DNA from: an uncultured bacterium
GTDB lineage: Bacteria > Babelota > Babeliae > Babelales > Babelaceae
DNA length: 64,000 bases
Assembly (NCBI GenBank): GCA_963848965.1
Contig: CAWKFG010000001.1
Coordinates: 224,001 to 288,000 of the forward strand
Reading direction: 5' to 3'
Of the stretch, positions 6,167 to 21,887 are shown in pieces. A program made the position numbers and the translations under genes. The notes under the pieces were generated by a model. That model made no database searches and had not been told where the DNA came from. It worked only from the letters and a program-made list of their open reading frames with translations. How positions within the stretch are numbered: position 1 is the stretch's first letter; each line of letters opens with the position of its first letter.

Positions 6167-7723
6167 ATGAAATTCTTTTGTATTGCAGGGCCTATTAAGC
6201 CAGAAATTCATTACTTTGTTCCTCATCGTCTTGATGTTAAGCCTTTAGAGAGACTCATAGATGAGATGCATTACTTTGTATTTCATGCTCCTCGTCAAAC
6301 TGGTAAGACTACGTCGGTAAAGGAGTTTATTCGTTATCTTAACGATAGTGGTAGATATTCAGCACTTTACATAAACATTGAACCGGCACAAGCTGCACGT
6401 GATAATGTAAAAGAGGCTCTTATTGCTATTGTAGAGGAACTAGCAGTTGCTATCGAAGAATATCTGTATAACGATCGTAAGGTTGCGCAGCATTTGAAAG
6501 ATATGATTAGAATCCATCCTGTTACTTTGAATCTTTTAGTGAATGCTTTACGCTTTATAGCCGAGTTGTGTCCAAAGCCAGTTATCCTGTTTATTGATGA
6601 AATAGATTCCTTAATTGGAGACTCACTGCTTTCTGTGCTTAGGCAGATAAGAGCTGGTTTTGGTGAAAGGCCTCACCGATTTCCGCAGTCAATATGCCTT
6701 ATTGGTCTTAGAGATGTAAGGGACTATAGAGTATGGTCTAAAGCATCTGGGGTATATGTCTCTACAAGTAGTCCCTTTAATATTAAGACTGAATCGTTAA
6801 CGCTTTCTAACTTTACTTATGAGCAGGTCAAACACCTTTATCTACAGCATACAACAGAAACTGGACAGCAATTTACAGATGAAGCAATAGACTATGCTTA
6901 CTACTTAACGCAAGGACAACCATGGCTGGTGAATGCTCTTGCTTACCAGGCCTGTTTTAGAGATGTTGCTGATAGAACTATATCTATTACCAAAGAAATA
7001 ATTGAACAATCTAAAAATCAGCTTATTGCTCGTAAAGATACACATTTGGATTCTCTTGTAGATAAACTTAATGAAGAAAGAGTGAGAAAGGTTATAGATA
7101 CTATTATTTCAGGAGAAGTTATTAAGCCGGAGTATATTCAAGATGATGTGCAGTATACGATAGATCTTGGTCTTATCTCTATTAAAGCAGGTAATTTGGC
7201 TATTGCTAATCCCATCTACCAAGAAATAATACCTGCTGTACTTGCTTACACGTTTCAATACAGTATTGTTGAAGAATTAGCTTGGTATAAACGTCTGGAT
7301 GGTTCTCTGGATATGAGTAAGTTGCTTGAATCCTTTACTCAGTTTTTTAGGGAAAATGCAGATGCATGGCTTTCGGATTTTAACTATAAAGAATCAGGTC
7401 CCCATATTCTTATGCTTGCATTTTTGCAAAGAGTGATTAATGGTGGAGGTACCATACATCGAGAATATGCTCTTGGAAGAAAACGTGTAGATCTTTTAAT
7501 TGCTTGGAAAAAGCAAAGAATAGTTATTGAACTTAAGATAAAGCGTGGTGAAGATACACTTAAGCACGGCCTCCAGCAAACAGCAGAGTACATGGATCTT
7601 TGTGGTGCTCATGAAGGACATCTTGTTATTTTTGATAAAGATCCTTGTAAGTCTTGGACTGAGAAAATTTCACAAGAGCTTCTTGTATATAATGCTAAAA
7701 AAATTCATGTCTGGACTCTCTAA
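6167..7723 (+). CDS. AAA-like ATPase with C-terminal PD-(D/E)XK nuclease-like domain
   Basis: Walker A APRQTGKT, Walker B ILFIDEID, SPFNI, GQPWLVN; C-terminal REY-RVDL-IELK-QTAEY. Confidence 0.85.
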   Translation: MKFFCIAGPIKPEIHYFVPHRLDVKPLERLIDEMHYFVFHAPRQTGKTTSVKEFIRYLNDSGRYSALYINIEPAQAARDNVKEALIAIVEELAVAIEEYLYNDRKVAQHLKDMIRIHPVTLNLLVNALRFIAELCPKPVILFIDEIDSLIGDSLLSVLRQIRAGFGERPHRFPQSICLIGLRDVRDYRVWSKASGVYVSTSSPFNIKTESLTLSNFTYEQVKHLYLQHTTETGQQFTDEAIDYAYYLTQGQPWLVNALAYQACFRDVADRTISITKEIIEQSKNQLIARKDTHLDSLVDKLNEERVRKVIDTIISGEVIKPEYIQDDVQYTIDLGLISIKAGNLAIANPIYQEIIPAVLAYTFQYSIVEELAWYKRLDGSLDMSKLLESFTQFFRENADAWLSDFNYKESGPHILMLAFLQRVINGGGTIHREYALGRKRVDLLIAWKKQRIVIELKIKRGEDTLKHGLQQTAEYMDLCGAHEGHLVIFDKDPCKSWTEKISQELLVYNAKKIHVWTL

Positions 7724-7819: not shown

Positions 7820-8179
7820 ATGAAGAAATGTCTTATTATGGCTCTAGCTTTAGGAATGGCAGCACCTCTTTTTTCAATGGAACCTGGTCAATCTGGAGTT
7901 TCAAATCCTTTCCGTATAGAACGAGCAAAAAAAAGAGCTATGCTAGAAGCTACAAGGCAACAGCTTATGGCTGTTATTCAGCAGTTGGAAGGTAACCTCA
8001 AAGCACAGCAAGTTCAGACAGTTTTTGGAAGACCAAGACCTGATCTTACTGCTCTACAAACGCAGGTAGCAGTTCTTAGACAACAGCTTGCTGGTGTCGA
8101 AAAAGAGCTTGTTGCTTTAACACAACAAGGCCCTGGTCTAGCTCGTGGACAGCAACAACGTACACAAAGCACTCGATAA
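7820..8179 (+). CDS. Hypothetical secreted Gln-rich coiled-coil protein
   Basis: AAGGAG RBS, signal peptide ending PLFS-ME, heptad Leu/Gln pattern. Confidence 0.75.
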   Translation: MKKCLIMALALGMAAPLFSMEPGQSGVSNPFRIERAKKRAMLEATRQQLMAVIQQLEGNLKAQQVQTVFGRPRPDLTALQTQVAVLRQQLAGVEKELVALTQQGPGLARGQQQRTQSTR

Positions 8180-9032: not shown

Positions 9033-9098
9033 TTAAGTATGAGTACGTATATGCGCTCTTAAATTACTAGAAGAGGTAAAGGCTTTATCACATTCATT
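9033..9098 (-). pseudogene. Relic 3' end of a C2H2 zinc-finger gene
   Basis: Minus strand reads [21 protein letters not shown], followed by the same TAAGCAAGAAG 3' flank as intact array genes; out of frame with the upstream ORF. Confidence 0.75.
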
Positions 9099-9954
9099 AA
9101 GCTTGAGGACAGCGGTGCTTATCTAAGTATAGTTGTGCAGAAAAAGTTCTTTTACATTGTTTACATGTAGCTGTCTTTTGCTTTTCATGAGTAGTTTTAT
9201 GCGCTGCTAAATTAGCCGGATTAATGAACTTTTTATCACATTGGACACAGAGGTGCTGTGCTTCTTCTTTCTTATGTAGTGCTGGTTTGTTCTTGATCAG
9301 AATCTCAACCTCCATACTTTCTGAATCTTCATCTGTAAAAGAGGAATCTTCTCTGTCATTTAAATAATAGTCCTCATCGTCTGAAGAGTCGTACTTCTGC
9401 TTTTTCAATGGTCTGGCCTGCTGTACTTTTTTTAATGCCGCCTTATCCTTTGAATTAGTGCTAATCTGTGTGTCTTCTTTGTGAGGATTGTTAGGAATCC
9501 TACGTTTCTGATCTACCGCTTTAGCTAGCTTTTTGCTTGCTTTACTTGTAGAATTCTCGTTGTTTTGCTGACTTCTTACATTGCCTAGTGTTGATACCAT
9601 CCTCTTTACTAATAACATAGGAGACGGTGTTACAGAAGCTGTTAAGTTATTTTGTTTGTAATAGCTGTTATCGCCTTGAGATAGCGGCTGCTCTTGAAAA
9701 TCAGTTGTATATGATTCTTCTTCTGTCTCACTATCCGCGTGCTGCATGTTTTCTTTTTCTTCTGCGTGAAGGATGGTGATGTGTAATTCTAGATCTTCTT
9801 TTTGCGTAAATTGTAAAGAACATTGCTCACATGCGTATGCTAGCTCTTGATTACTCACTAAATCCTTTTGTCCTTCTGAGCATTGTTCCATTCCATAGAG
9901 AGTGGTTACTGTACCCCAGAGCAAAAGCATTACAATCTTATTCATAATTTCCAA
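9097..9954 (-). CDS. Secreted protein with three dispersed C2H2/C2HC zinc fingers and basic and acidic tracts
   Basis: Signal peptide ending LYG-ME; fingers CEQC..HITILH, CVQC..HKTTH, CKQC..HRC; PLKKQK basic patch; DSSDDED acidic tract. Confidence 0.85.
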   Translation of the reverse strand: MEIMNKIVMLLLWGTVTTLYGMEQCSEGQKDLVSNQELAYACEQCSLQFTQKEDLELHITILHAEEKENMQHADSETEEESYTTDFQEQPLSQGDNSYYKQNNLTASVTPSPMLLVKRMVSTLGNVRSQQNNENSTSKASKKLAKAVDQKRRIPNNPHKEDTQISTNSKDKAALKKVQQARPLKKQKYDSSDDEDYYLNDREDSSFTDEDSESMEVEILIKNKPALHKKEEAQHLCVQCDKKFINPANLAAHKTTHEKQKTATCKQCKRTFSAQLYLDKHRCPQA

Positions 9955-10092
9955 TTAATTTTAAAAGTACTTTTACTAGTACAATAGAGTTCTTATCATT
10001 CATATCATTATACTATAGCCTATGATTTTAATTATAATTTGTCAATAATAAAAGTATTGGGACATCAGCTACGCAGAGCATTAAGCCGTATT

Positions 10093-10797
10093 TTACGTGT
10101 TATGAACTTTTTGATGTATTGTTAATTGACCAGAAGTAATGAAGGTTTTACTGCACTCAGTACATACATATGGTTTTTCTCCTGTATGAGTACGTATGTG
10201 CCTTGTTAAAGTACTGGAATCAGCAAAAGTTTTATCGCATTCATTACATACATATGGCTTTATACCAGTATGAGTACGCATATGTATTGTTAATTGGTCA
10301 GACTGAGTAAAAGCTTTATGACATTCAGTACAAACATAGGGTCTTTCTTCGGTATGAGTACGTACGTGTTTTGTTAAGTCACTAGCAGTAGTAAAAGCTT
10401 TGTCGCATTCAGTACAGACATAAGGCTTTTCACCAGTATGACTACGCATATGTGATGTTAAACTATCAGTTCGAGCAAAAGCTTTATGACATTCATTACA
10501 AACATAGGGTCTTTCTCCAGTATGAGTGTATATATGCCTTGTTAACTTGCTAGAAGTAGCGAAAGTTTTACCACATTCAATACATATATGCTCTTTTTTT
10601 TGTCTCTTATGATTAACAGCAGAGTCAACATCATTTTGAGAAGCGTGAAGACGTTTTCTAGAGAGAATAGGTGTGTCATCAGATATGTCTTCTAGTGCTG
10701 TATCTGGTTGTTGAGTGTTATTAGTACCTCTATCTTCTTGCATAGAATAAATAAAATGAGAAAATAAGCAGAGTAAGAATAAAGAGAGCGTTTTCAT
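10093..10797 (-). CDS. Secreted Krueppel-type C2H2 zinc-finger protein, 6 fingers
   Basis: Signal peptide, RKR-x14-KRQKK, six 28-aa CxxC-x12-HxxxH units with TGEKP-type linkers. Confidence 0.95.
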   Translation of the reverse strand: MKTLSLFLLCLFSHFIYSMQEDRGTNNTQQPDTALEDISDDTPILSRKRLHASQNDVDSAVNHKRQKKEHICIECGKTFATSSKLTRHIYTHTGERPYVCNECHKAFARTDSLTSHMRSHTGEKPYVCTECDKAFTTASDLTKHVRTHTEERPYVCTECHKAFTQSDQLTIHMRTHTGIKPYVCNECDKTFADSSTLTRHIRTHTGEKPYVCTECSKTFITSGQLTIHQKVHNT

Positions 10798-10900
10798 TGG
10801 ATACCTAATGTTTTATTAGAAAACTTATTGTTTAGGTCTTTAAATATAATTATATAGCTTGAAAATAAAAGTGCAAGTAAGAGCACTCAAAGCTTCTTGC
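10798..10900 (-). repeat. Repeated ~103 bp intergenic promoter/RBS cassette of the ZF array, copy 1
   Basis: Near-identical to 11519-11621 and 16792-16894. Confidence 0.9.
10849..10876 (-). promoter_or_regulatory. sigma70-like promoter TTGCAC-N16-TATAAT
   Basis: Read on the minus strand; conserved or nearly so in the other cassette copies (e.g. 11570-11597). Confidence 0.65.
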
Positions 10901-11518
10901 TTAAGTATGAGTATGCATGTGCCTTGTTAACTTACTAGATTCAGCAAAAGCTTTATCACATTCGTTACATACATAAGGCTTTTCACCAGTATGAGTACGC
11001 ATATGTAATGTTAAACTATCAGCTCGAGTAAAAGCTTTATCACATTCAGTACAAACATAGGGTCTTTCTCCGGTATGAGTACGCATATGTTTTGTTAAAG
11101 TACTAGAATTGGTAAAAGCTTTATCACATTTAGTACATATATACGGCTTTTCTCCTGTATGTGTTAGTATATGTTGTGTTAAATTACCAGATTTAGTAAA
11201 AGCTTTATTACATTCACTACATACATACGGTCTTTCTCCGGTATGTGTTAGTATATGTACTGTTAAACTACTAGAATTGGTAAAAGCTTTATCACATTCA
11301 ATACATATATGCTCTTTTTTTTGTCTCTTATGAATAACTGCGGAGTCAACATCATTTTGAGAAGCGTAAGGGCGTTTTCTAGAGAGAATAGGCGCGTCAT
11401 CAGATATGTCTTCTGTTGCTGTATCTGGTTGTTGAGTGTTATTAGTACCTCTATCTTCTTGCATAGAATAAATAAAATGAGAAAATAAGCAGAGTAAGAA
11501 TAAAGAGAGCGTTTTCAT
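10901..11518 (-). CDS. Secreted Krueppel-type C2H2 zinc-finger protein, 5 fingers
   Basis: Leader nearly identical to the 10093 gene; five tandem fingers. Confidence 0.95.
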
Positions 11519-11621
11519 TGGATACCTAATGTTTTATTAGAAAACTTATTGTTTAGGTCTTTAAATATAATTATATAACTTGAAAATAAAAGTGCAAGTA
11601 AGAGCATTCAAAGCTTCTTGC
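11519..11621 (-). repeat. ZF-array intergenic cassette, copy 2
   Basis: Near-identical to 10798-10900. Confidence 0.9.
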
Positions 11622-12827
11622 TTAAGTATGATTACGCATATGCTTTGTTAAATTACCAGCTTGTGCAAAAGCCTTATTACATTCAGCACAAGTGTAAGGC
11701 TTTTCACCGGTATGAGTACGAATGTGCTCTTTTAGTAGATAAGAACGAGTAAAAGCTTTATCACATTCATTACAAACATAGGGTCTTTCATCAGTATGAC
11801 TACGCATATGCTGTGTTAAATTACCAGGTTGTGTAAAGGCTTTATCACATTCAGTACATACATATGGTTTTTCTCCTGTATGACTATGCATATGTATTGT
11901 TAAATGGCCAGACTGAGTAAAAGCTTTGTCACATTCAGTACATACATAAGGCTTTATACCAGTATGAGTACGCATATGTATTGTTAAGGAGCTAGAGTCA
12001 GCAAAGGCTTTATTACATTCACTACAAACATAGGGCTTTTCATCAGTATGAGTACGCATATGCTGTGTTAAATTACCAGATTGTGTAAAGGCTTTATCAC
12101 ATTCACTACATACATATGGTTTTTCTCCTGTATGACTACGCATATGTTTTGTTAAAGTACTGGAATCGGCAAAGAATTTATTGCACTCAGTACATACGTA
12201 TGGTTTGTCACCTGTATGCATACGCATATGTAGTGTTAACTTGCTAGACTCAGCGAAAGCTTTATCACATTCGTTACAAACATAAGGCTTTTCACCAGTA
12301 TGAGTACGCATATGCTGTGTTAAATTACCAGGTTGTGTAAAGGCTTTATCACATTCAGTACATACATATGGTTTTTCTCCTGTATGACTACGCATATGTT
12401 TTGTTAAAGTACTGGAATCGGCAAAGGATTTATTGCACTCAGTACATACATATGGTTTTTCACCAGTATGAGTACGCATGTGTAGTGTTAAATTACCAGC
12501 TTGTGCAAAAGCCTTATTACATTCAGCACAAGTGTAAGGCTTTTCACCGGTATGAGTACGAATGTGCAGTTTTAGTAGATAAGAACGAGTAAAAGCTTTA
12601 CCACATTCAATACATATGTGCTCTTTTTTTTGTCTCTTATCATTAACTGCGGAGTCAATATCATTTTGAAAGTTAGAAGGGCGTTTTCTAGAGAGAATAG
12701 GTGCGTCATCAGATAGATCTTCTAGTGCTGTATCTGGTTGTTGAGTTTCATTTGTGCTAATAGCTTCTTGCATAGAGTAAGTAAAAGGAAAGAATAAGCA
12801 AAGTAAAAATAAAGAGAATGTTTTCAT
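11622..12827 (-). CDS. Secreted Krueppel-type C2H2 zinc-finger protein, 12 fingers
   Basis: ATG at 12827 (ORF track starts at the preceding TTG); signal peptide, RKR..KRQKK, twelve fingers. Confidence 0.95.
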
Positions 12828-12830
12828 CAA

Positions 12831-12930
12831 AGACCTACCATCTTATTGGGAAATTTTTTGAGCAAATATTTAAATATAATTATATAAATTGAAAATAAAA
12901 TTGCAAGTAAGAGCATCCAAGACTTCTTGC
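12831..12930 (-). repeat. ZF-array intergenic cassette, variant copy
   Basis: Shares the AAATATAATTATA..GAAAATAAAA..TGCAAGTAAGAGCA..CTTCTTGC core (plus strand); closest to 15822-15921. Confidence 0.85.
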
Positions 12931-13734
12931 TTAAGTATGAGTACGCATATGCCTTGTTAAATTACTAGAAGTTGTGAAAGCGTTATCACACTCGGTGCAC
13001 TTATAGGGCCTTTCTCGTGTGTGACTATACATATGTGCTATTAAGTGGCTAGAAGTAGTAAAAGCTCTATTGCATTCATTACATACATACGGCTTTTCTC
13101 CTGTATGTGTTAGTATATGCTTTGCTAAGTTACTAGACTCTGCAAAAGTTTTACCACACTCGTTACATACATACGGCTTCTCACCCGTATGAGTACGCAT
13201 ATGTATTGTTAATTTACCAGATTGTGCAAAAGCTTTATCGCATTCATTACATTTATAAGGTTTTTCTCTTGTATGCGTACGTATATGCTTTGTTAAATCG
13301 CCAGATTCAGCAAAAGCTTTGTTACATTCAGTACATATATATGGCTTTTCGCCTGTATGACCGCGCATATGTAATGTTAAAGAACTAGACTGAGTAAAAG
13401 CTTTATTGCATTCAGGACATATATAGGGCTTTTCTCCTGTATGAGTACGCATATGTACTGTTAAATTTCTAGAGGTTGTAAAAGCTTTATCACATTCATT
13501 ACACTTAAAGGGCCTTTCCCCTGTATGCGTACGCATATGTATCGCCAACTTACTAGGAACACTAAAAGCCTTATTACATTCAACACATATATGTCGTAGC
13601 TTACTTCTTTTATGTCCTCTTTCTTCTTGAGACTCTATCTCACTCTCTTCTCTTTCTCTTTTTGTAGTCTCTCTTTCCATTGCATTGAGCAGACTTACTA
13701 TGAAAAAAAGAGTAAATATCACTATTTTTCTCAT
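12931..13734 (-). CDS. Secreted Krueppel-type C2H2 zinc-finger protein, 8 fingers, distinct leader
   Basis: Signal peptide ending LNA-ME; KR..HKRSK basic clusters; eight fingers. Confidence 0.95.
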
Positions 13735-13825
13735 ATATTATTCCTTATTATAATATGTAAGGTATCATTAGACTTATGGCAGCATTCCTCACATAGAGCT
13801 TTATACAAAGGTAAGCCTAGAATTA

Positions 13826-14542
13826 TTATTTTGAAAACACGAAATCGAGACTTCCAGAATGGGCCTTGAGCGTAAATGAATTAACTACCCATTGCTTTTT
13901 TGCATCAGCAGAAACTATTTGAAGTTGCTTGCTAAGACGGTGTTTAAGGATATGAACCATATTTTGCGGGTCTCTATCTTTATCTTCATAAAGCTTGCCA
14001 ATAGTAAGATGCATATCAAAATAAGGAAACTGGCCTAAGCTGTCCTGTATCGATTGCGCCACATGAGTAAGCGCAGGTGAAGAAGGAAATCGTAGTACAA
14101 TATAATAAAAATTCTTTTTAGGTATCCCCTTGTAGACATTGCCTTTGTCTCTATCTCCTTTAAAGCAAGTAAATTCTACTGCTTTAAGGTTTTCCGTAAG
14201 ATCAATAGCCCTTGTTTCTTTAGCAATCTTTTCAAGAGCTGGAATATTATATTTCTGCTTTTCCAATAACTGCTTAAGTGTTAACTGAGCATCTGTAATA
14301 TACGCAAGCGATATGTGTGAAGCATACTGGGGAGCATCAAATAGATATTTTATATGCCCTGGTTTGGTCTTTTGTGCTTCATTTTCATGATCAATAATCT
14401 CTTTGACTTGCTCTTGGACTACATGCACAAATTCTTGTACCACCGTAGGTGGCTCAATTAATACGATGACTCCACCAAAAAGATTACTCATGGTTATACA
14501 GAAAATAAGCATTAAAATTAACTTACAATGTGAGCTATACAT
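13826..14542 (-). CDS. Putative secreted 2H phosphoesterase-family protein
   Basis: Two Hx(S/T) motifs (SHISLAY and MHLTIGK) about 100 aa apart; likely ATG at 14542 gives a hydrophobic signal-like N-terminus. Confidence 0.7.
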   Translation of the reverse strand: MYSSHCKLILMLIFCITMSNLFGGVIVLIEPPTVVQEFVHVVQEQVKEIIDHENEAQKTKPGHIKYLFDAPQYASHISLAYITDAQLTLKQLLEKQKYNIPALEKIAKETRAIDLTENLKAVEFTCFKGDRDKGNVYKGIPKKNFYYIVLRFPSSPALTHVAQSIQDSLGQFPYFDMHLTIGKLYEDKDRDPQNMVHILKHRLSKQLQIVSADAKKQWVVNSFTLKAHSGSLDFVFSK

Positions 14543-14664
14543 GGTATATCCTAGATAAATGATTCTATTTAATATATTCTCTATATTACATTTTAATGAT
14601 AATTTGTCAATAATATTAATGGTTAAAGGTATGCTGACGCAAAGCAAATAAAGTAGTGCCCTAC

Positions 14665-14757
14665 TTACTGTTGAGTCTCATTGGAGATAGTAGTTTCTTG
14701 CATAGAATAAGTACAAGGAACGAATATGAAAAGTAAAAGAAGATAGAATATTTGCAT
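14665..14757 (-). pseudogene. Truncated ZF-family gene (leader only, 30 aa)
   Basis: MQIFYLLLLFIFVPCTYSMQETTISNETQQ* is homologous to the ZF leaders; a degenerate promoter cassette lies upstream at ~14758-14830. Confidence 0.8.
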
Positions 14758-14862
14758 AGTGCTTAGTCTCTTATTAGAAAGGTTATTGTATAAATGCTTA
14801 AATATAATTATATAATTTGAAAATAAAAAGTAAATGGTTGTCAGAGATAGTACTTTACAGTT

Positions 14863-15032
14863 TTACTTCTTATGAGTGAGCATATGATTTTTAAATTACC
14901 AGATTGAGTAAAAGATCTATCGTACTCAGTGCATACAAAATGCTTTTCTCTAGTATGGGTTCGCATGTGCTATTTCAGTTTATCAGAACGAGCAAAAGCT
15001 TTGTTATATTCAGTACAGACGTAAGGTTGCTC
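14863..15032 (-). pseudogene. Two decayed zinc fingers beyond the stop of the 15033 gene
   Basis: In-frame continuation reads EQPYVCTEYNKAFARSDKLK*HMRTHTREKHFVCTEYDRSFTQSGNLK, then a frameshift before HMLTH. Confidence 0.85.
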
Positions 15033-15818
15033 TCATGTATGAGTATGCATGTGCCTTGTTAAATTACCAGATTGTGCAAAGGCTTTATTGCATTCACTAC
15101 AAACATAAGGTTTTTCACCACTATGGGTACGTATGTGTTGTGTTAAAGTACTGGAATCGGCAAAGAATTTATTGCACTCAGTACATACGTATGGTTTTTC
15201 ACCAGTATGAGTACGTACGTGTTTTGTTAATTTACCAGCAGTGGTAAAAGCTTTGTCGCATTCAGTACATACATAAGGCTTTATACCAGTATGAGTACGC
15301 ATATGTTTTGTTAATTGGCCAGACTCGGCAAAAGCTTTGTTGCATTCAGTACATGCATAAGTCTTTTCACCGGTATGACTACGCATATGTGATGTTAAAC
15401 TATCAGTTCGAGCAAAAGCTTTATCACATTCAGTACATACATAAGGCTTTATACCAGTATGAGTATGTACGTGTTTTGTTAAGTCACCAGCACTAGTAAA
15501 AGCTTTGTTGCATTCAGTACATACATAAGGCTTTTCACCGGTATGACTACGCATATGTCGTGTTAAACTATCAGAACGGGTAAAAAGTTTATCACATTCA
15601 GTGCAGGCATATTCTTTTTTCTGTTTCTTTTGATTAACCGGAGATTCGATATCATTGTGAGCAGAATAAAGCCGTTTTTTAGGTAATATGGGTATCTCAT
15701 CAGATAGGTCTTCTGTAATAGACTTATCTTGTTGAGCCTCATTGGCGCTAATAGCTTCTTGCATAGAGTAAGCAAAAGGAAAGAATAAGCAAAGTAAAAA
15801 TAAAGAAAACGTTTTCAT
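15033..15818 (-). CDS. Secreted Krueppel-type C2H2 zinc-finger protein, 7 fingers
   Basis: ATG at 15818; signal peptide, KKR..KKQKK, seven fingers; ends at a TGA where the linker Gly codon is expected. Confidence 0.95.
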   Translation of the reverse strand: MKTFSLFLLCLFFPFAYSMQEAISANEAQQDKSITEDLSDEIPILPKKRLYSAHNDIESPVNQKKQKKEYACTECDKLFTRSDSLTRHMRSHTGEKPYVCTECNKAFTSAGDLTKHVHTHTGIKPYVCTECDKAFARTDSLTSHMRSHTGEKTYACTECNKAFAESGQLTKHMRTHTGIKPYVCTECDKAFTTAGKLTKHVRTHTGEKPYVCTECNKFFADSSTLTQHIRTHSGEKPYVCSECNKAFAQSGNLTRHMHTHT

Positions 15819-15821
15819 CAA

Positions 15822-15921
15822 AGACCTATCATCTTATTAGGAAATTTTTTGAGTAAATATTTAAATATAATTATATGGCATGAAAATAAAAGTGCAAGTA
15901 AGAGCATTCAAAGCTTCTTGC
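15822..15921 (-). repeat. ZF-array intergenic cassette, variant copy
   Basis: Similar to 12831-12930 and 10798-10900. Confidence 0.85.
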
Positions 15922-16791
15922 TTAAGTATGAGTACGCATGTGCTTTGTTAAACCACTGGAATCGGCAAAAGCTTTACCGCATTCACTACATATATAAGGT
16001 TTTTCACCAGTATGAGTACGCATATGTACTGTTAATTTACTAGAGGTGCTAAAAGCTTTATCACATTCAGTACAGACATAAGGCTTTTCACCAGTATGAG
16101 TGCGCATATGTATTGTTAATTGGTCAGACTGAGTAAAAGCTTTATGACATTCATTACAAACATAGGGTCTTTCTTCGGTATGAGTACGTACGTGTTTTGT
16201 TAAGTCACTAGCAGTAGTAAAAGCTTTGTCGCATTCAGTACATGTATAAGGCTTTTCACCAGTATGAGTACGCATATGTACTGTTAATTTACTAGAGGTG
16301 GTAAAAGCTTTATGACATTCAGTACAAACATAGGGTCTTTCTCCGGTATGGGTACGTACGTGTTGTGTTAATTCGCCAGCAGTAGTAAAAGCTTTGTCGC
16401 ATTCAGTACAGACATAAGGCTTTTCACCAGTATGACTACGCATATGTTTTGTTAAACTATCAGTTCGAGTAAAAGCTTTACTACATTCGTTACATACATA
16501 AGGCTTTTCACCAGTATGAGTGTATATATGCCTTGTTAACTTGCTAGAAGTAGCGAAAGTTTTACCACATTCAATACATATATGCTCTTTTTTTTGTCTC
16601 TTATGATTAACAGCAGAGTCAACATCATTTTGAGAAGCGTGAAGACGTTTTCTAGAGAGAATAGGTGTGTCATCAGATATGTCTTCTAGTGCTGTATCTG
16701 GTTGTTGAGTGTTATTAGTACCTTTATCTTCTTGCATAGAATAAATAAAATGAGAAAATAAGCAAAGTAAGAATAAAGAGAGCGTTTTCAT
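15922..16791 (-). CDS. Secreted Krueppel-type C2H2 zinc-finger protein, 8 fingers
   Basis: Leader and first finger almost identical to the 10093 gene; eight fingers. Confidence 0.95.
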
Positions 16792-16894
16792 TGGATACCT
16801 AATGTTTTATTAGAAAACTTATTGTTTAGGTCTTTAAATATAATTATATAGCTTGAAAATAAAAGTGCAAGTAAGAGCATTCAAAGCTTCTTGC
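16792..16894 (-). repeat. ZF-array intergenic cassette, copy 3
   Basis: Near-identical to 10798-10900. Confidence 0.9.
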
Positions 16895-17848
16895 TTAAGT
16901 ATGAGTACGCATATGCCGTGTTAATTTGCTAGACTCAGCAAAAGCTTTATAACATTCATTACATATATATGGTTTTTCGCCTGTATGACTATGCATATGT
17001 TTTGTTAAAGTACTTGAATCGGCAAAGAATTTATTGCATTCATTACAAACATAAGGTTTTTCACCAGTATGAGTACGCATATGTACTGTTAATTTACTAG
17101 AGGTGGTAAAAGCTTTGCTACATTCATTACAGACGTATGGCTTTTCATCAGTATGAGTACGAATATGTACTATTAATTTACTAGAGGTGGTAAAAGCTTT
17201 ATCACATTCAGTACATGCATAAGGCTTTTCACCAGTATGAGTACGCATGTGTAGTGTTAAATTACCAGCTTGTGCAAAAGCCTTATTACATTCAGCACAA
17301 GTATAAGGCTTTTCACCGGTATGAGTACGCATATGTAATGTTAAAGAACTAGACTGAGTAAAAGCTTTATTGCATTCAGTACATATATAAGGCTTTTCAC
17401 CAGTATGACTACGCATATGTAATGTTAAACTGTCAGCTCGAGCAAAAGCTTTATCACATTCAGTACAAACATAAAACTTTTCACCAGTATGAATACTTAT
17501 ATGTTTTGTTAATTGGCTAGACTGAGTAAAAGCTTTATCACATTCGTTACATACATAAGGTTTTTCACCAGTATGAGTGTATATATGCCTTGTTAACCTG
17601 CTAGAGGTAGCGAAAGCTTTACCACATTCAATACATATGTGCTCTTTTTTCTGTTTCTTTTGATTAACCGGGGATTCGATATCATTGTGAGTAGAATAAA
17701 GCCGTTTTTTAGGTACTATGGGTATCTCATCAGATAGGTCTTCTGTAATAGACTTATCTTGTTGAGCCTCATTTGTGCTAGTAGCTTCTTGCATAGTATA
17801 AGCTAAAGGAAAAAATATGCAAAGTAAGAAAAGAAAGAACATTTTCAT
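16895..17848 (-). CDS. Secreted Krueppel-type C2H2 zinc-finger protein, 9 fingers
   Basis: Start chosen at ATG 17848 (MKMFF) by alignment to paralogues; signal peptide, KKR..KKQKK, nine fingers. Confidence 0.95.
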
Positions 17849-18059
17849 AGTGCCCATTATCATATTAGAAAATTTATTGTGCAAATGCCTGTCTATAATT
17901 ATATAATTTAAAAATAAAAATGCAAATGCGTGGTTTCAAGATGTGTATACTATAAGCAATCAGGTGTAGAAAAAAAGAAAGAATACTTATTCTTGCTATT
18001 TGTTAAAAGATCTTGGGATACTACCTATGTAAAGAGTTCTATTAAAGGGAGAGCTAGCA

Positions 18060-18482
18060 ATGAGGCATGGACTGCGAGAAGAGATTTTAGAAGCTTGTAA
18101 TAAGTGTATTGTAAGTTGTGAAGAATGTGTAAAATTAGCGCGCCGTTGCTTGGGTACTTGTGAATCATCAGAAGCATCTGCTTGTAAAGAGATGGTTCAA
18201 AAGTATATTGAACATTGTAAAAAATGCATTGAAGCATGTAGAGCGTGTATAGATATATGTAATGAAGGTATTAAGCTTGCTGAAAATGATGAAGAAGCCC
18301 ACTTTTTACAAAAATGTGTAGAAGCTTGTGGTGACTGTATTACTGCATGCCAAACAAGCATTGATAATTGTTCTGTACAAGTAAACTGCATACAGGCTAC
18401 AAAAGAATGTATAGAGCTCTGTAACGAATGTATATCTGCTTGTGATGAATGCATTGAGCATTTAGGCATTAGAGGATTGTAA
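18060..18482 (+). CDS. Cys-rich four-helix-bundle metal-binding protein (Csp3/DUF326-like)
   Basis: 23 Cys in 140 aa in repeated CxxCxxxCxxC helical motifs; no signal peptide; GGGAG RBS. Confidence 0.8.
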   Translation: MRHGLREEILEACNKCIVSCEECVKLARRCLGTCESSEASACKEMVQKYIEHCKKCIEACRACIDICNEGIKLAENDEEAHFLQKCVEACGDCITACQTSIDNCSVQVNCIQATKECIELCNECISACDECIEHLGIRGL

Positions 18483-19433
18483 TTGAAATAAACTGCTTGT
18501 CTTTGACAAGTGACCATGTAGGATGCATACGATGTGAGCCTGGACCGGGCCTATGCAAAAAACGAATTATTTCGTTAAAGAAGGGGTTAGTGGGAGTGAA
18601 GGGGACATTGGCTCTGCAGAGCCAGAGCACAAGAATGCGAGGGTACAAAAATGGATCAAAGGAAAAAAACTTTTCCTTATCAAGCCATAGCCGTCCCTCG
18701 CGCATGTGCGCCATAGTATCAAATGCTTTTTGAGCACAGTTCTCTAAAAAATCATCTGTTTCTTGAATATTCTTAAGTGTACTTAAAAAAGTTGTATCAA
18801 ATCTTTTATCACACTGCCTCAATGCTGGCAATAAAATATGGCGTATTCTATTGCGTAAATAGCTTTCAAGCATATTAGTGTAATCTTCTTTGTAGGCAAG
18901 GTTATGCTCTTTAAGATATTCTAGAATCTGTGCTTTTGTAACAGACAAAAGAGGGCGGATATACATACCTGCTTTAGGTCTCATACTTGCAAGGCCTGCA
19001 ATACTTGCTCCTCGAATAAAGCGTATAAAAAACGTTTCTTGTTGATCATCATAATGATGGCCCAGTGCTATAGCTTGAGCTCCATACTCTTGAGCTACAG
19101 ATTCTAAAAAGCAGCGCCGTAACATGCGGCCCAGCTCTTCTTGAGAGCCCTGTGGTACTTTTTCAAGCGTAATACTTGAAGCTTTTGTACTTACAAAAGG
19201 GATGCCAAGCTGCTCTGCAAAGTCAGCACAAAAGAGTGCATCTTCATGAGATTCTTTGCGCCATTCATGATCTAAGTGAGCCGCAATGAGCTTGAGGTGA
19301 TACTGATCCTTGAGAGTAAAAAGTATATGCAAAAGGCATACAGAGTCAGGACCACCAGAAAGCCCCACAACTACAGTAGTGTGGGGCTTTAAAAGATTAT
19401 GTTTATCTATATGAGCAGTGATTGAAGAAAGCA

Positions 19434-19434
<1 letters not shown>
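18469..19434 (-). CDS. tilS: tRNA(Ile)-lysidine synthetase
   Basis: SGGPDS PP-loop, HLDH, GHHYDDQQET, IRPLL and RNRIR motifs. Confidence 0.97.

Positions 19435-21887
<2,453 letters not shown>

Follow-up and report, generated by a model that had tools for sequence, protein, structure and literature searches.

Direct reading of host DNA is, to our knowledge, rare among bacterial effectors, and the transcription activator-like (TAL) effectors of Xanthomonas and Ralstonia are the main example. These modular repeat proteins are delivered by type III secretion, act in the host nucleus, and carry a nuclear localization signal (NLS) and an acidic region; the repeats are about 34 residues long (33–35), read one base each through repeat-variable diresidues, and have a fold unrelated to that of zinc fingers, and paralogues are reshuffled by repeat recombination. 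Here, we analyse a tandem array of seven genes for poly-C2H2 zinc-finger (ZnF) proteins in the genome of an uncultured bacterium of the phylum TM6/Dependentiae (assembly GCA_963848965.1). The array lies within a 64,000-nucleotide stretch, the window, which corresponds to positions 224001–288000 of the 643,180-bp contig CAWKFG010000001.1 (C1); coordinates refer to the window unless a contig is given. A first-pass annotation, made from the letters of the window, described the proteins as a zinc-finger analogue of TAL effectors. A likeness of function can be retained as an analogy, but the repeats and the secretion route are different: the units here are 28-residue C2H2 units, and the genome, which is 88.7% complete, has no match to the type III marker FHIPEP. 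The NLS and the activation domain are C-terminal in TAL effectors, whereas the acidic and basic parts are N-terminal here.

In terms of fold, the counterparts are the eukaryotic Krueppel-type arrays (ZNF568, CTCF, PRDM9, and the designed protein Aart), which belong to the same fold family and have the same 28-residue unit, TGEKP-type linkers, and variable positions. Unlike these, the present arrays are bacterial, lack introns, start with a Sec-type signal peptide, and have no KRAB, BTB, SCAN, or ZAD partner among the families listed. The bacterial Ros/MucR proteins are cytoplasmic regulators of bacterial genes, with just one finger, whose structure is distinct. The likeness to them is limited to a Cys2His2-type zinc site in a bacterial protein, since 5–12 canonical fingers follow a signal-like leader here, and the Ros/MucR Pfam model is not among the best 25 families listed for the seven proteins. 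MoHTR1 and MoHTR2 of Magnaporthe oryzae combine a signal peptide, a C2H2 finger, and nuclear targeting, and reprogram host immunity genes, according to the accessible part of PMC12488382, where TAL effectors are mentioned as well. As described there, they differ from the present array in having a eukaryotic producer, in the size of MoHTR2 (110 residues with one finger domain), and in the absence of long TGEKP arrays and of a tandem family. Within the same phylum, and with the same presumed route, the signal-peptide ankyrin proteins of Babela and Chromulinavorax likewise carry eukaryote-like repeats behind a signal peptide, to judge from the available portions of the genome papers. Ankyrin repeats bind proteins, whereas the finger domains here would read nucleic acid.

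A literature search, with subscription journals and supplements outside its reach, returned no paper that describes tandem C2H2 arrays, whether in Dependentiae or in the role of bacterial effectors. The accessible portions of three Dependentiae genome papers (PMC6561590, PMC4776705, and PMC4378268) and of a 2025 Babelota survey hold no relevant mention of zinc fingers, and a paper on Endozoicomonadaceae notes, in its accessible part, zinc-finger enrichment in Kistimonas and cites the Ros/MucR literature (PMC12491435). We regard the array as belonging to a known kind, that of secreted eukaryote-like effectors and nucleomodulins, in a form for which no earlier description was found, and the class as phylum-wide.

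We consider it probable, at roughly 0.6, that the finger proteins are DNA binders that are exported by Sec and type II secretion and act in the host nucleus. The genes would serve as effector genes in an obligately intracellular member of TM6/Dependentiae in whose genome eukaryote-type C2H2 arrays have long been resident. A cleavable Sec signal peptide would direct the proteins across the inner membrane, and exit would follow by the secretin/type II pathway, the sole route found in the genome. The mature protein would consist of an acidic segment, a bipartite basic cluster of nuclear-import type, and 5–12 TGEKP-linked fingers; upon entry into the nucleus of a protist host, it would bind long DNA sites (about 15–36 bp) and change host transcription. 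Retargeting would take place by duplication, by swaps of finger modules between the paralogues of the array, and by substitutions at those helix positions that contact bases. The proposal of exported nucleomodulins in the first-pass annotation is supported in part, namely by the intact bacterial genes, the export-type leaders, the basic clusters, the lack of other domains, and the variation at contact positions; export, nuclear import, DNA binding, and host targets are predicted.

As stated in the first-pass annotation, the seven genes are co-oriented and intron-less, and the list of open reading frames (ORFs) places all of them on the minus strand between 10093 and 17884. Gene 1 (10093–10797) encodes an 18-residue signal peptide, an acidic segment, the clusters RKR-x14-KRQKK, and 6 fingers, and gene 2 (10901–11518) encodes a leader as in gene 1 and 5 fingers. 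Gene 3 (ORF 11622–12830, probable ATG start at 12827) has a related leader and 12 fingers, and gene 4 (12931–13734) has 8 fingers after a divergent leader, MRKIVIF…LLNA, that continues as MERE…HKRSKLR. Gene 5 (ORF 15033–15821, probable ATG start at 15818) encodes 7 fingers, gene 6 (15922–16791) 8 fingers behind a leader with 99% identity to the gene 1 leader, and gene 7 (ORF 16895–17884, likely ATG start at 17848) 9 fingers. The resulting total of 55 fingers, as originally counted, is obtained both from the PF00096 stretches and from the regular expression [FYH]-x-C-x2-C-x3-F-x5-L-x2-H-x3-H. All seven proteins exceed the gathering thresholds of both Pfam finger families, with 124–300 bits for PF00096 (cut-off 25.2) and 138–360 bits for PF13465 (cut-off 40), a double-finger model that needs the linker and for which E-values range from 2e-41 to 7e-112. 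The C-x2-C-x12-H-x3-H spacing with its Phe and Leu core is present in 55 of 55 fingers, and none of the six residues C, C, F, L, H, and H varies among them. The 84-bp unit is recovered as the period assigned by Tandem Repeats Finder (TRF) in all seven genes, and the TGEKP linker is exact in 28 of the 48 inter-finger linkers (33 of 48 for TGE[KR]P). Every protein stops 1–2 residues past its last His, and the best 25 of up to 38 Pfam families are zinc-finger or zinc-binding families only, in line with the reported absence of KRAB, BTB, SCAN, or any other domain.

The closest relative of solved structure is ZNF568 (E=4e-100). Database relatives of the finger part are 50–59% identical and mostly animal poly-ZnF proteins, with one protein of a ‘Candidatus Dependentiae bacterium’ among them (57%). 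Because the fingers deviate little from the family consensus and animal sequences abound in the database, an attempt to name a donor lineage from these matches was abandoned.

The variation between fingers is concentrated where a DNA reader would be expected to vary. Column entropy is highest at helix positions −1, +3, and +6 (2.63, 2.99, and 2.80 bits) and falls to 0 at the four zinc ligands (two Cys and two His) and at the core Phe and Leu, and the 55 fingers have 44 distinct recognition helices. In 41 nearest-neighbour finger pairs, the proportions of non-synonymous (pN) and synonymous (pS) differences are 0.173 and 0.235 at the contact codons (−1, +2, +3, and +6; omega 0.70), and 0.065 and 0.175 at the other 19 codons (omega 0.34), which amounts to a 2.7-fold excess of pN in the former. 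The six invariant columns have accumulated 20 synonymous and 0 non-synonymous differences in the same pairs. This contrast between the codon classes suggests that the fold is kept while the DNA-reading surface is freer. The nearest neighbours belong to different genes in 32 of the 41 pairs, often at different finger positions, which argues for an exchange of finger modules between the paralogues; examples, given as gene and finger number, are g1f1 and g6f1 (100% identity), g1f3 and g6f5 (96%), g1f4 and g6f6 (97%), and g3f2 and g7f5 (99%).

The N-terminal part has a common layout in six of the proteins, with an 18-residue leader (MKT[LF]SLFLLCLF…Y[ST]), a Met, a 28-residue acidic segment (7 Asp/Glu and 0–1 Lys/Arg), the basic clusters, and finger 1. 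By a hydropathy heuristic, the Sec-type leader reported earlier is found in all seven proteins, which begin with M-K/R followed by a hydrophobic core and a small residue, and the leader ends in Y-S, Y-T, or N-A ahead of the Met, as for a signal-peptidase-type site. The predicted mature size is about 21–42 kDa. The two basic clusters described before finger 1 are present as RKR/KKR-x14-KRQKK/KKQKK in six of the seven proteins, but gene 4 has HKRSKLR instead. In its order of acidic segment, basic clusters, and fingers, the layout would be that of a minimal eukaryotic transcription factor, and either an activator or a blocker may be envisaged. Steric competition, the mode of action suggested in the first-pass annotation, is one option, and the acidic segment fits an activator at least as well.

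The earlier treatment as one odd locus can no longer be upheld, since the array is one expansion of a class that extends over the phylum. At E≤0.001, PF13465 is matched in 75 of 261 Dependentiae genomes and 44 of 145 genera, several single-contig genomes being among the positives, and in 23 of the 261 genomes the curated cut-off is exceeded. For comparison, 4 of 300 Gammaproteobacteria (a sample that includes the seed) and 0 of 14 control genomes are positive. Tandem clusters recur, with six finger ORFs within 5 kb in one genome (G055:C28) and at least four in another (G054:C2). The combination of C2H2 fingers and signal peptide, which the first-pass annotation proposed to look for across bacterial genomes, was evaluated for the 35 finger-array ORFs with complete N-terminus, from 33 loci in other Dependentiae genomes, all leader comparisons being made under one procedure: 33 of the 35 have a signal-like start, compared with 27 of 45 flanking non-finger ORFs of the same loci. 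A single-protein scan of genome contigs gave 42 pattern matches, none of which was confirmed, and an alignment scan gave 4 loci, too few to gauge the spread outside the phylum, for which the profile search of genomes was used instead.

Related arrays are also found on giant-virus contigs, drawn from metagenome-assembled genomes and large viral contigs, where 22 loci with TGEKP-type fingers were confirmed (28–63% identity to the query). There, a signal-like start is found in 2 of 14 finger-array ORFs and in 8 of 38 other ORFs of the same contigs. The difference between 33 of 35 and 2 of 14 suggests that the leader is associated with the bacterial copies rather than with the viral ones, although related genomes do not count as independent observations and the numbers therefore make the contrast look statistically stronger than it is. 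The bacterial copies would need export and the viral copies would be made in the host cytoplasm, so that the leaderless viral arrays provide a natural control for export.

A bolder version, which we hold to be possible but doubtful, is that the class constitutes phylum-wide secreted programmable transcription factors, the ZnF counterpart of TAL effectors. Each protein would then be a minimal activator, composed of an acidic activation segment, an NLS, and 5–12 fingers, placed behind a bacterial signal peptide, and the tandem paralogues would trade finger modules as a means of tracking host promoters or changing between them, with leaderless versions of the same arrays circulating in giant viruses that infect these hosts. 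In about 300 leaders of the genome, cleavage at the predicted site would expose a Met and give the exported protein a eukaryote-like Met-Glu/Lys/Gln N-terminus in the host cytosol. Several finger proteins of other Dependentiae have acidic stretches past the signal peptide with a recurring L-W-[FL] motif (…DLWF…, …ALWFTEE…), which may be reminiscent of acidic activation motifs. A fused enzyme domain of the ‘zinc-finger nuclease’ type was considered and rejected, as 11 long finger proteins from the present genome and two others (G126 and G047) match zinc-finger-type Pfam families alone.

It is also conceivable, albeit unlikely, that the proteins are exported and have a target other than host nuclear DNA, such as the DNA or RNA of competitors in the same host cell (giant viruses or other symbionts), the DNA of mitochondria, or RNA or proteins of the host. 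Some C2H2 fingers do bind RNA or protein, and the related arrays on giant-virus contigs suggest that viruses and these bacteria draw on one gene pool inside protists. A mitochondrial target would suit Chromulinavorax, which replicates wrapped in a host mitochondrion according to the accessible part of its genome paper (PMC6561590). Against such targets, basic clusters are situated right before finger 1 in seven of the seven proteins. TGEKP-type linkers together with variation at −1, +3, and +6 are, moreover, the signature of readers of double-stranded DNA.

A host-nuclear role depends on export, and the leaders of the array conform to a type that is used throughout the genome. Among 1432 ORFs of a crude set, 616 have N-termini that resemble signal peptides or membrane anchors, which is close to the 44% given for Chromulinavorax in the available text of PMC6561590. 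A Met follows the hydrophobic core in 303 leader ORFs of this set, compared with 63 of 465 control ORFs; this inner Met is mostly at residues 19–22, and is preceded by Ala, Ser, or Gly in 65% and followed by Glu in 35% of the cases (n=303). The leader type, i.e., signal peptide, small residue, and Met-Glu/Lys/Gln, is observed genome-wide, and in the window also at 7820–8179 (+), at 9097–9954 (−), and in the seven ZnF genes. A Met in this position, at the start of the predicted mature protein, might imitate the N-terminus of eukaryotic proteins or might be a trace of leader addition. As for machinery, the genome encodes signal peptidase I, three clustered secretins, and two T2SSE ATPases, and the markers of type III, type IV, and type VI secretion (FHIPEP, VirB4, and VipB) were not found in the 88.7% complete genome. 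The three secretin genes are located side by side at C4:767163–774663, on another contig, with open frames of 1153, 818, and 796 residues. Two gspD genes and a type II system are core to the phylum according to the portions of Yeoh et al. available to us (PMC4776705), so that the present genome has one secretin gene more than that core. In Babela, type II is the sole secretion system, and signal-peptide ankyrin proteins are taken to be secreted into the amoeba cytoplasm, as stated in the accessible part of Pagnier et al. (PMC4378268). Machinery and phylum membership both fit a Dependentiae Sec/type II secretome, export itself being predicted.

The leaders bear at the same time on a more improbable alternative, in which the proteins never leave the bacterium: they would reside in its periplasm or envelope, for instance as zinc buffers, or be made as a cytoplasmic form that starts at the inner Met and regulates bacterial genes. 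A Met after the hydrophobic core is present in eight of eight leaders, which makes an internal start formally possible, and export past the inner membrane is a prediction. However, a Shine–Dalgarno (SD)-like motif precedes the leader Met in 200 of the 303 ORFs and the inner Met in 22 of 303 (234 of 465 for non-signal ORFs), which places the start of translation at the leader Met. The residues at −1 and −3 before the inner Met also fit a signal-peptidase site, with the preference for Ala, Ser, or Gly at −1 given above, and a zinc buffer leaves the focus of the variation on contact positions unexplained.

The putative expression signals of the array itself are of bacterial type, as was first annotated. 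A promoter-like sequence of the form TTGCAx-16 nt-TATAAT is present 49–51 nt before the leader ATG in six of the seven genes and in one relic copy, and AGGT, an SD-like site, is located 5 nt before the leader ATG in five of the seven. The conserved intergenic unit at 10798–10900 (−) exemplifies the arrangement, with TTGCAC, a 16-nt spacer, and TATAAT at 10876–10849, the ATG 51 nt further on, and AGGT at −5. The 100 nt upstream of genes 1, 2, 3, 5, and 6 are 75–99% identical to each other. A search of sequencing runs retrieved one soil-metagenome DNA run (0.07 share of words), and no RNA run was listed.

Not all copies have remained intact. Past the stop codon of gene 5 and in frame with it, two decayed finger units are found at 14871–15032 (−), from sequence reading and from a TRF array at 14871–15602; the second Cys is replaced by Tyr in both, and an internal stop and the loss of one His ligand are observed. 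These units show how unconstrained fingers look at this locus. A leader-only relic of 30 codons at 14665–14757 (−), signal-peptide-like with MQETT… and a TAA thereafter, has its own TATAAT box and is the remnant of a lost ZnF gene. Relic and decayed fingers together point to birth and death of copies, and since copies do die, one might consider the whole array to be recent eukaryotic DNA, without function, that duplicates and decays neutrally. This is very improbable: the seven ORFs and their 55 fingers are intact, the invariant columns have no non-synonymous change beside 20 synonymous ones, codon choices have drifted to those of the genome, and the architecture is present in 44 of 145 genera.

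The relic sits just upstream of a non-finger gene that splits the array (13826–14542, −). Its product has a hydrophobic N-terminus and two H-x-S/T-x motifs, and no Pfam match at E≤0.01; PF13563 (2′-5′ RNA ligase/2H phosphoesterase superfamily) is obtained at E=0.031, below the cut-off, and a single-sequence AlphaFold2 model, with a predicted local distance difference test (pLDDT) score of 35.9, is unusable. The protein may be an exported 2H phosphoesterase, a weak assignment made from the motifs and the leader-like start. At the other end of the array, 9097–9954 (−), with 9097–9945 taken as the gene, encodes an eighth zinc-finger protein of putatively secreted type. It has a signal-like leader (…TTLYG before MEQ) and dispersed C2H2 fingers, one near the N-terminus and two at the C-terminus, separated by a long charged linker (PF00096, E=5.3e-09, 2 stretches). 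The first-pass annotation was thus right about the seven genes, and overlooked this protein, the splitting gene, the leader relic, and the two decayed fingers.

Elsewhere in the genome, at least 17 ORFs have C2H2-like motifs, and most of their N-termini appear signal-like by eye. A second C2H2 cluster at C1:611.8–619.7 kb includes a 1209-residue protein with about ten dispersed fingers, and further C2H2-bearing ORFs are located at C1:78219–79064, C1:200583–201740, C1:330542–332623, C4:600065–600799, and C1:123806–123994, the last of which is an eighth copy of the array leader. No other Pfam domain was found in four of these additional C2H2 ORFs that were scanned.

The genome comprises 1,726,235 bp in 5 contigs, with 1.18% contamination, and the array is located about 233–242 kb into contig C1. 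Contiguity with tilS-gyrB, as first annotated, is borne out, both genes adjoining the array directly upstream on the map: a tilS-like gene (18469–19434, −; PF01171, 1.9e-49) and gyrB (19434–21845, −; PF00204, 5.9e-56) are housekeeping genes and tie the array to the bacterial chromosome. The AT-rich codon usage noted earlier is also that of the genome, with the same preference for codons ending in A or T. GC content and GC at third codon positions (GC3) are 0.350 and 0.199 in the finger genes, and 0.380±0.055 and 0.271±0.091 on average in the ORFs of the genome. The position deep in a 643-kb contig, the genome-like codons, and the array's own promoter-like and SD-like sites all argue for a bacterial rather than a chimeric array. 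The idea of a chimeric assembly, or of a genome bin contaminated with eukaryotic DNA, has the least to commend it and is close to negligible, for although contaminated bins do exist, as in an Endozoicomonas metagenome-assembled genome (MAG), here the nearer contig end is 233 kb away, bacterial genes are present on both sides, introns are absent, the leaders are of a bacterial type shared with about 300 further ORFs of the genome, and single-contig Dependentiae genomes carry related arrays.

The Endozoicomonas sp. MAG (5.9 Mb) has more than 120 PF13465 matches spread over many contigs, of which the one inspected is 3,081 bp long; these matches look like host DNA binned with the bacterium and not like bacterial genes. 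In the window, a Cys-rich protein of 140 residues (18060–18482, +; DUF326, E=2.5e-06) is encoded between the array and tilS, and the 518-residue product of 6167–7723 (+) combines an AAA_35 ATPase domain with a weak match to PD-(D/E)XK nucleases at its C-terminus.

A number of observations weigh against Sec/type II-exported DNA binders of the host nucleus. The proposal is a product of sequence analysis. Signal peptides were assigned by an in-house hydropathy heuristic, with the start codon picked for maximal hydrophobicity, and about 20% of the viral control ORFs (the 8 of 38 given above) pass it too. A basic cluster within 25 residues of finger 1 is found in just 13 of the 35 relatives, and in the array the clusters are 14 residues apart, where classical bipartite spacing is 10–12. 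Type II substrates fold in the periplasm, where the Cys ligands could oxidise, and the route by which Dependentiae proteins would go on to the host cytosol is hypothetical. A search of 40 further genomes from the family found the 69-residue leader of the array in none of them, which suggests that the array is a lineage-specific expansion, and leaves no orthologues against which the leader could be tested. Omega at the contact codons, at 0.70, is below 1, and positive selection is thus not demonstrated. A generic promoter scan returned 20 sites, fewer than in shuffled sequence (40.2±7.0); this promoter/terminator scan was not counted as evidence, and the conserved intergenic unit was read directly instead. 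Finally, relative synonymous codon usage (RSCU) of the finger genes correlates with that of the genome at 0.73, compared with a mean of 0.95 and a minimum of 0.67 for random ORF sets, which is expected from the repetitive composition, yet is counted here as a caveat.

If the finger proteins do read host DNA, they would represent a second independent bacterial solution to this task, built from the commonest eukaryotic DNA-reading module. This module would then be distributed across an entire phylum that parasitises protists and about whose manipulation of its hosts very little is known. Since the proteins are short and free of partner domains, their target sites should be predictable and measurable by existing zinc-finger methods, and these sites could serve to find the hosts and the host genes that matter. 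The array offers a natural set of compact multi-finger proteins with a predicted layout for export and nuclear import. It also bears on the movement of eukaryotic regulatory modules among protists, giant viruses, and intracellular bacteria.

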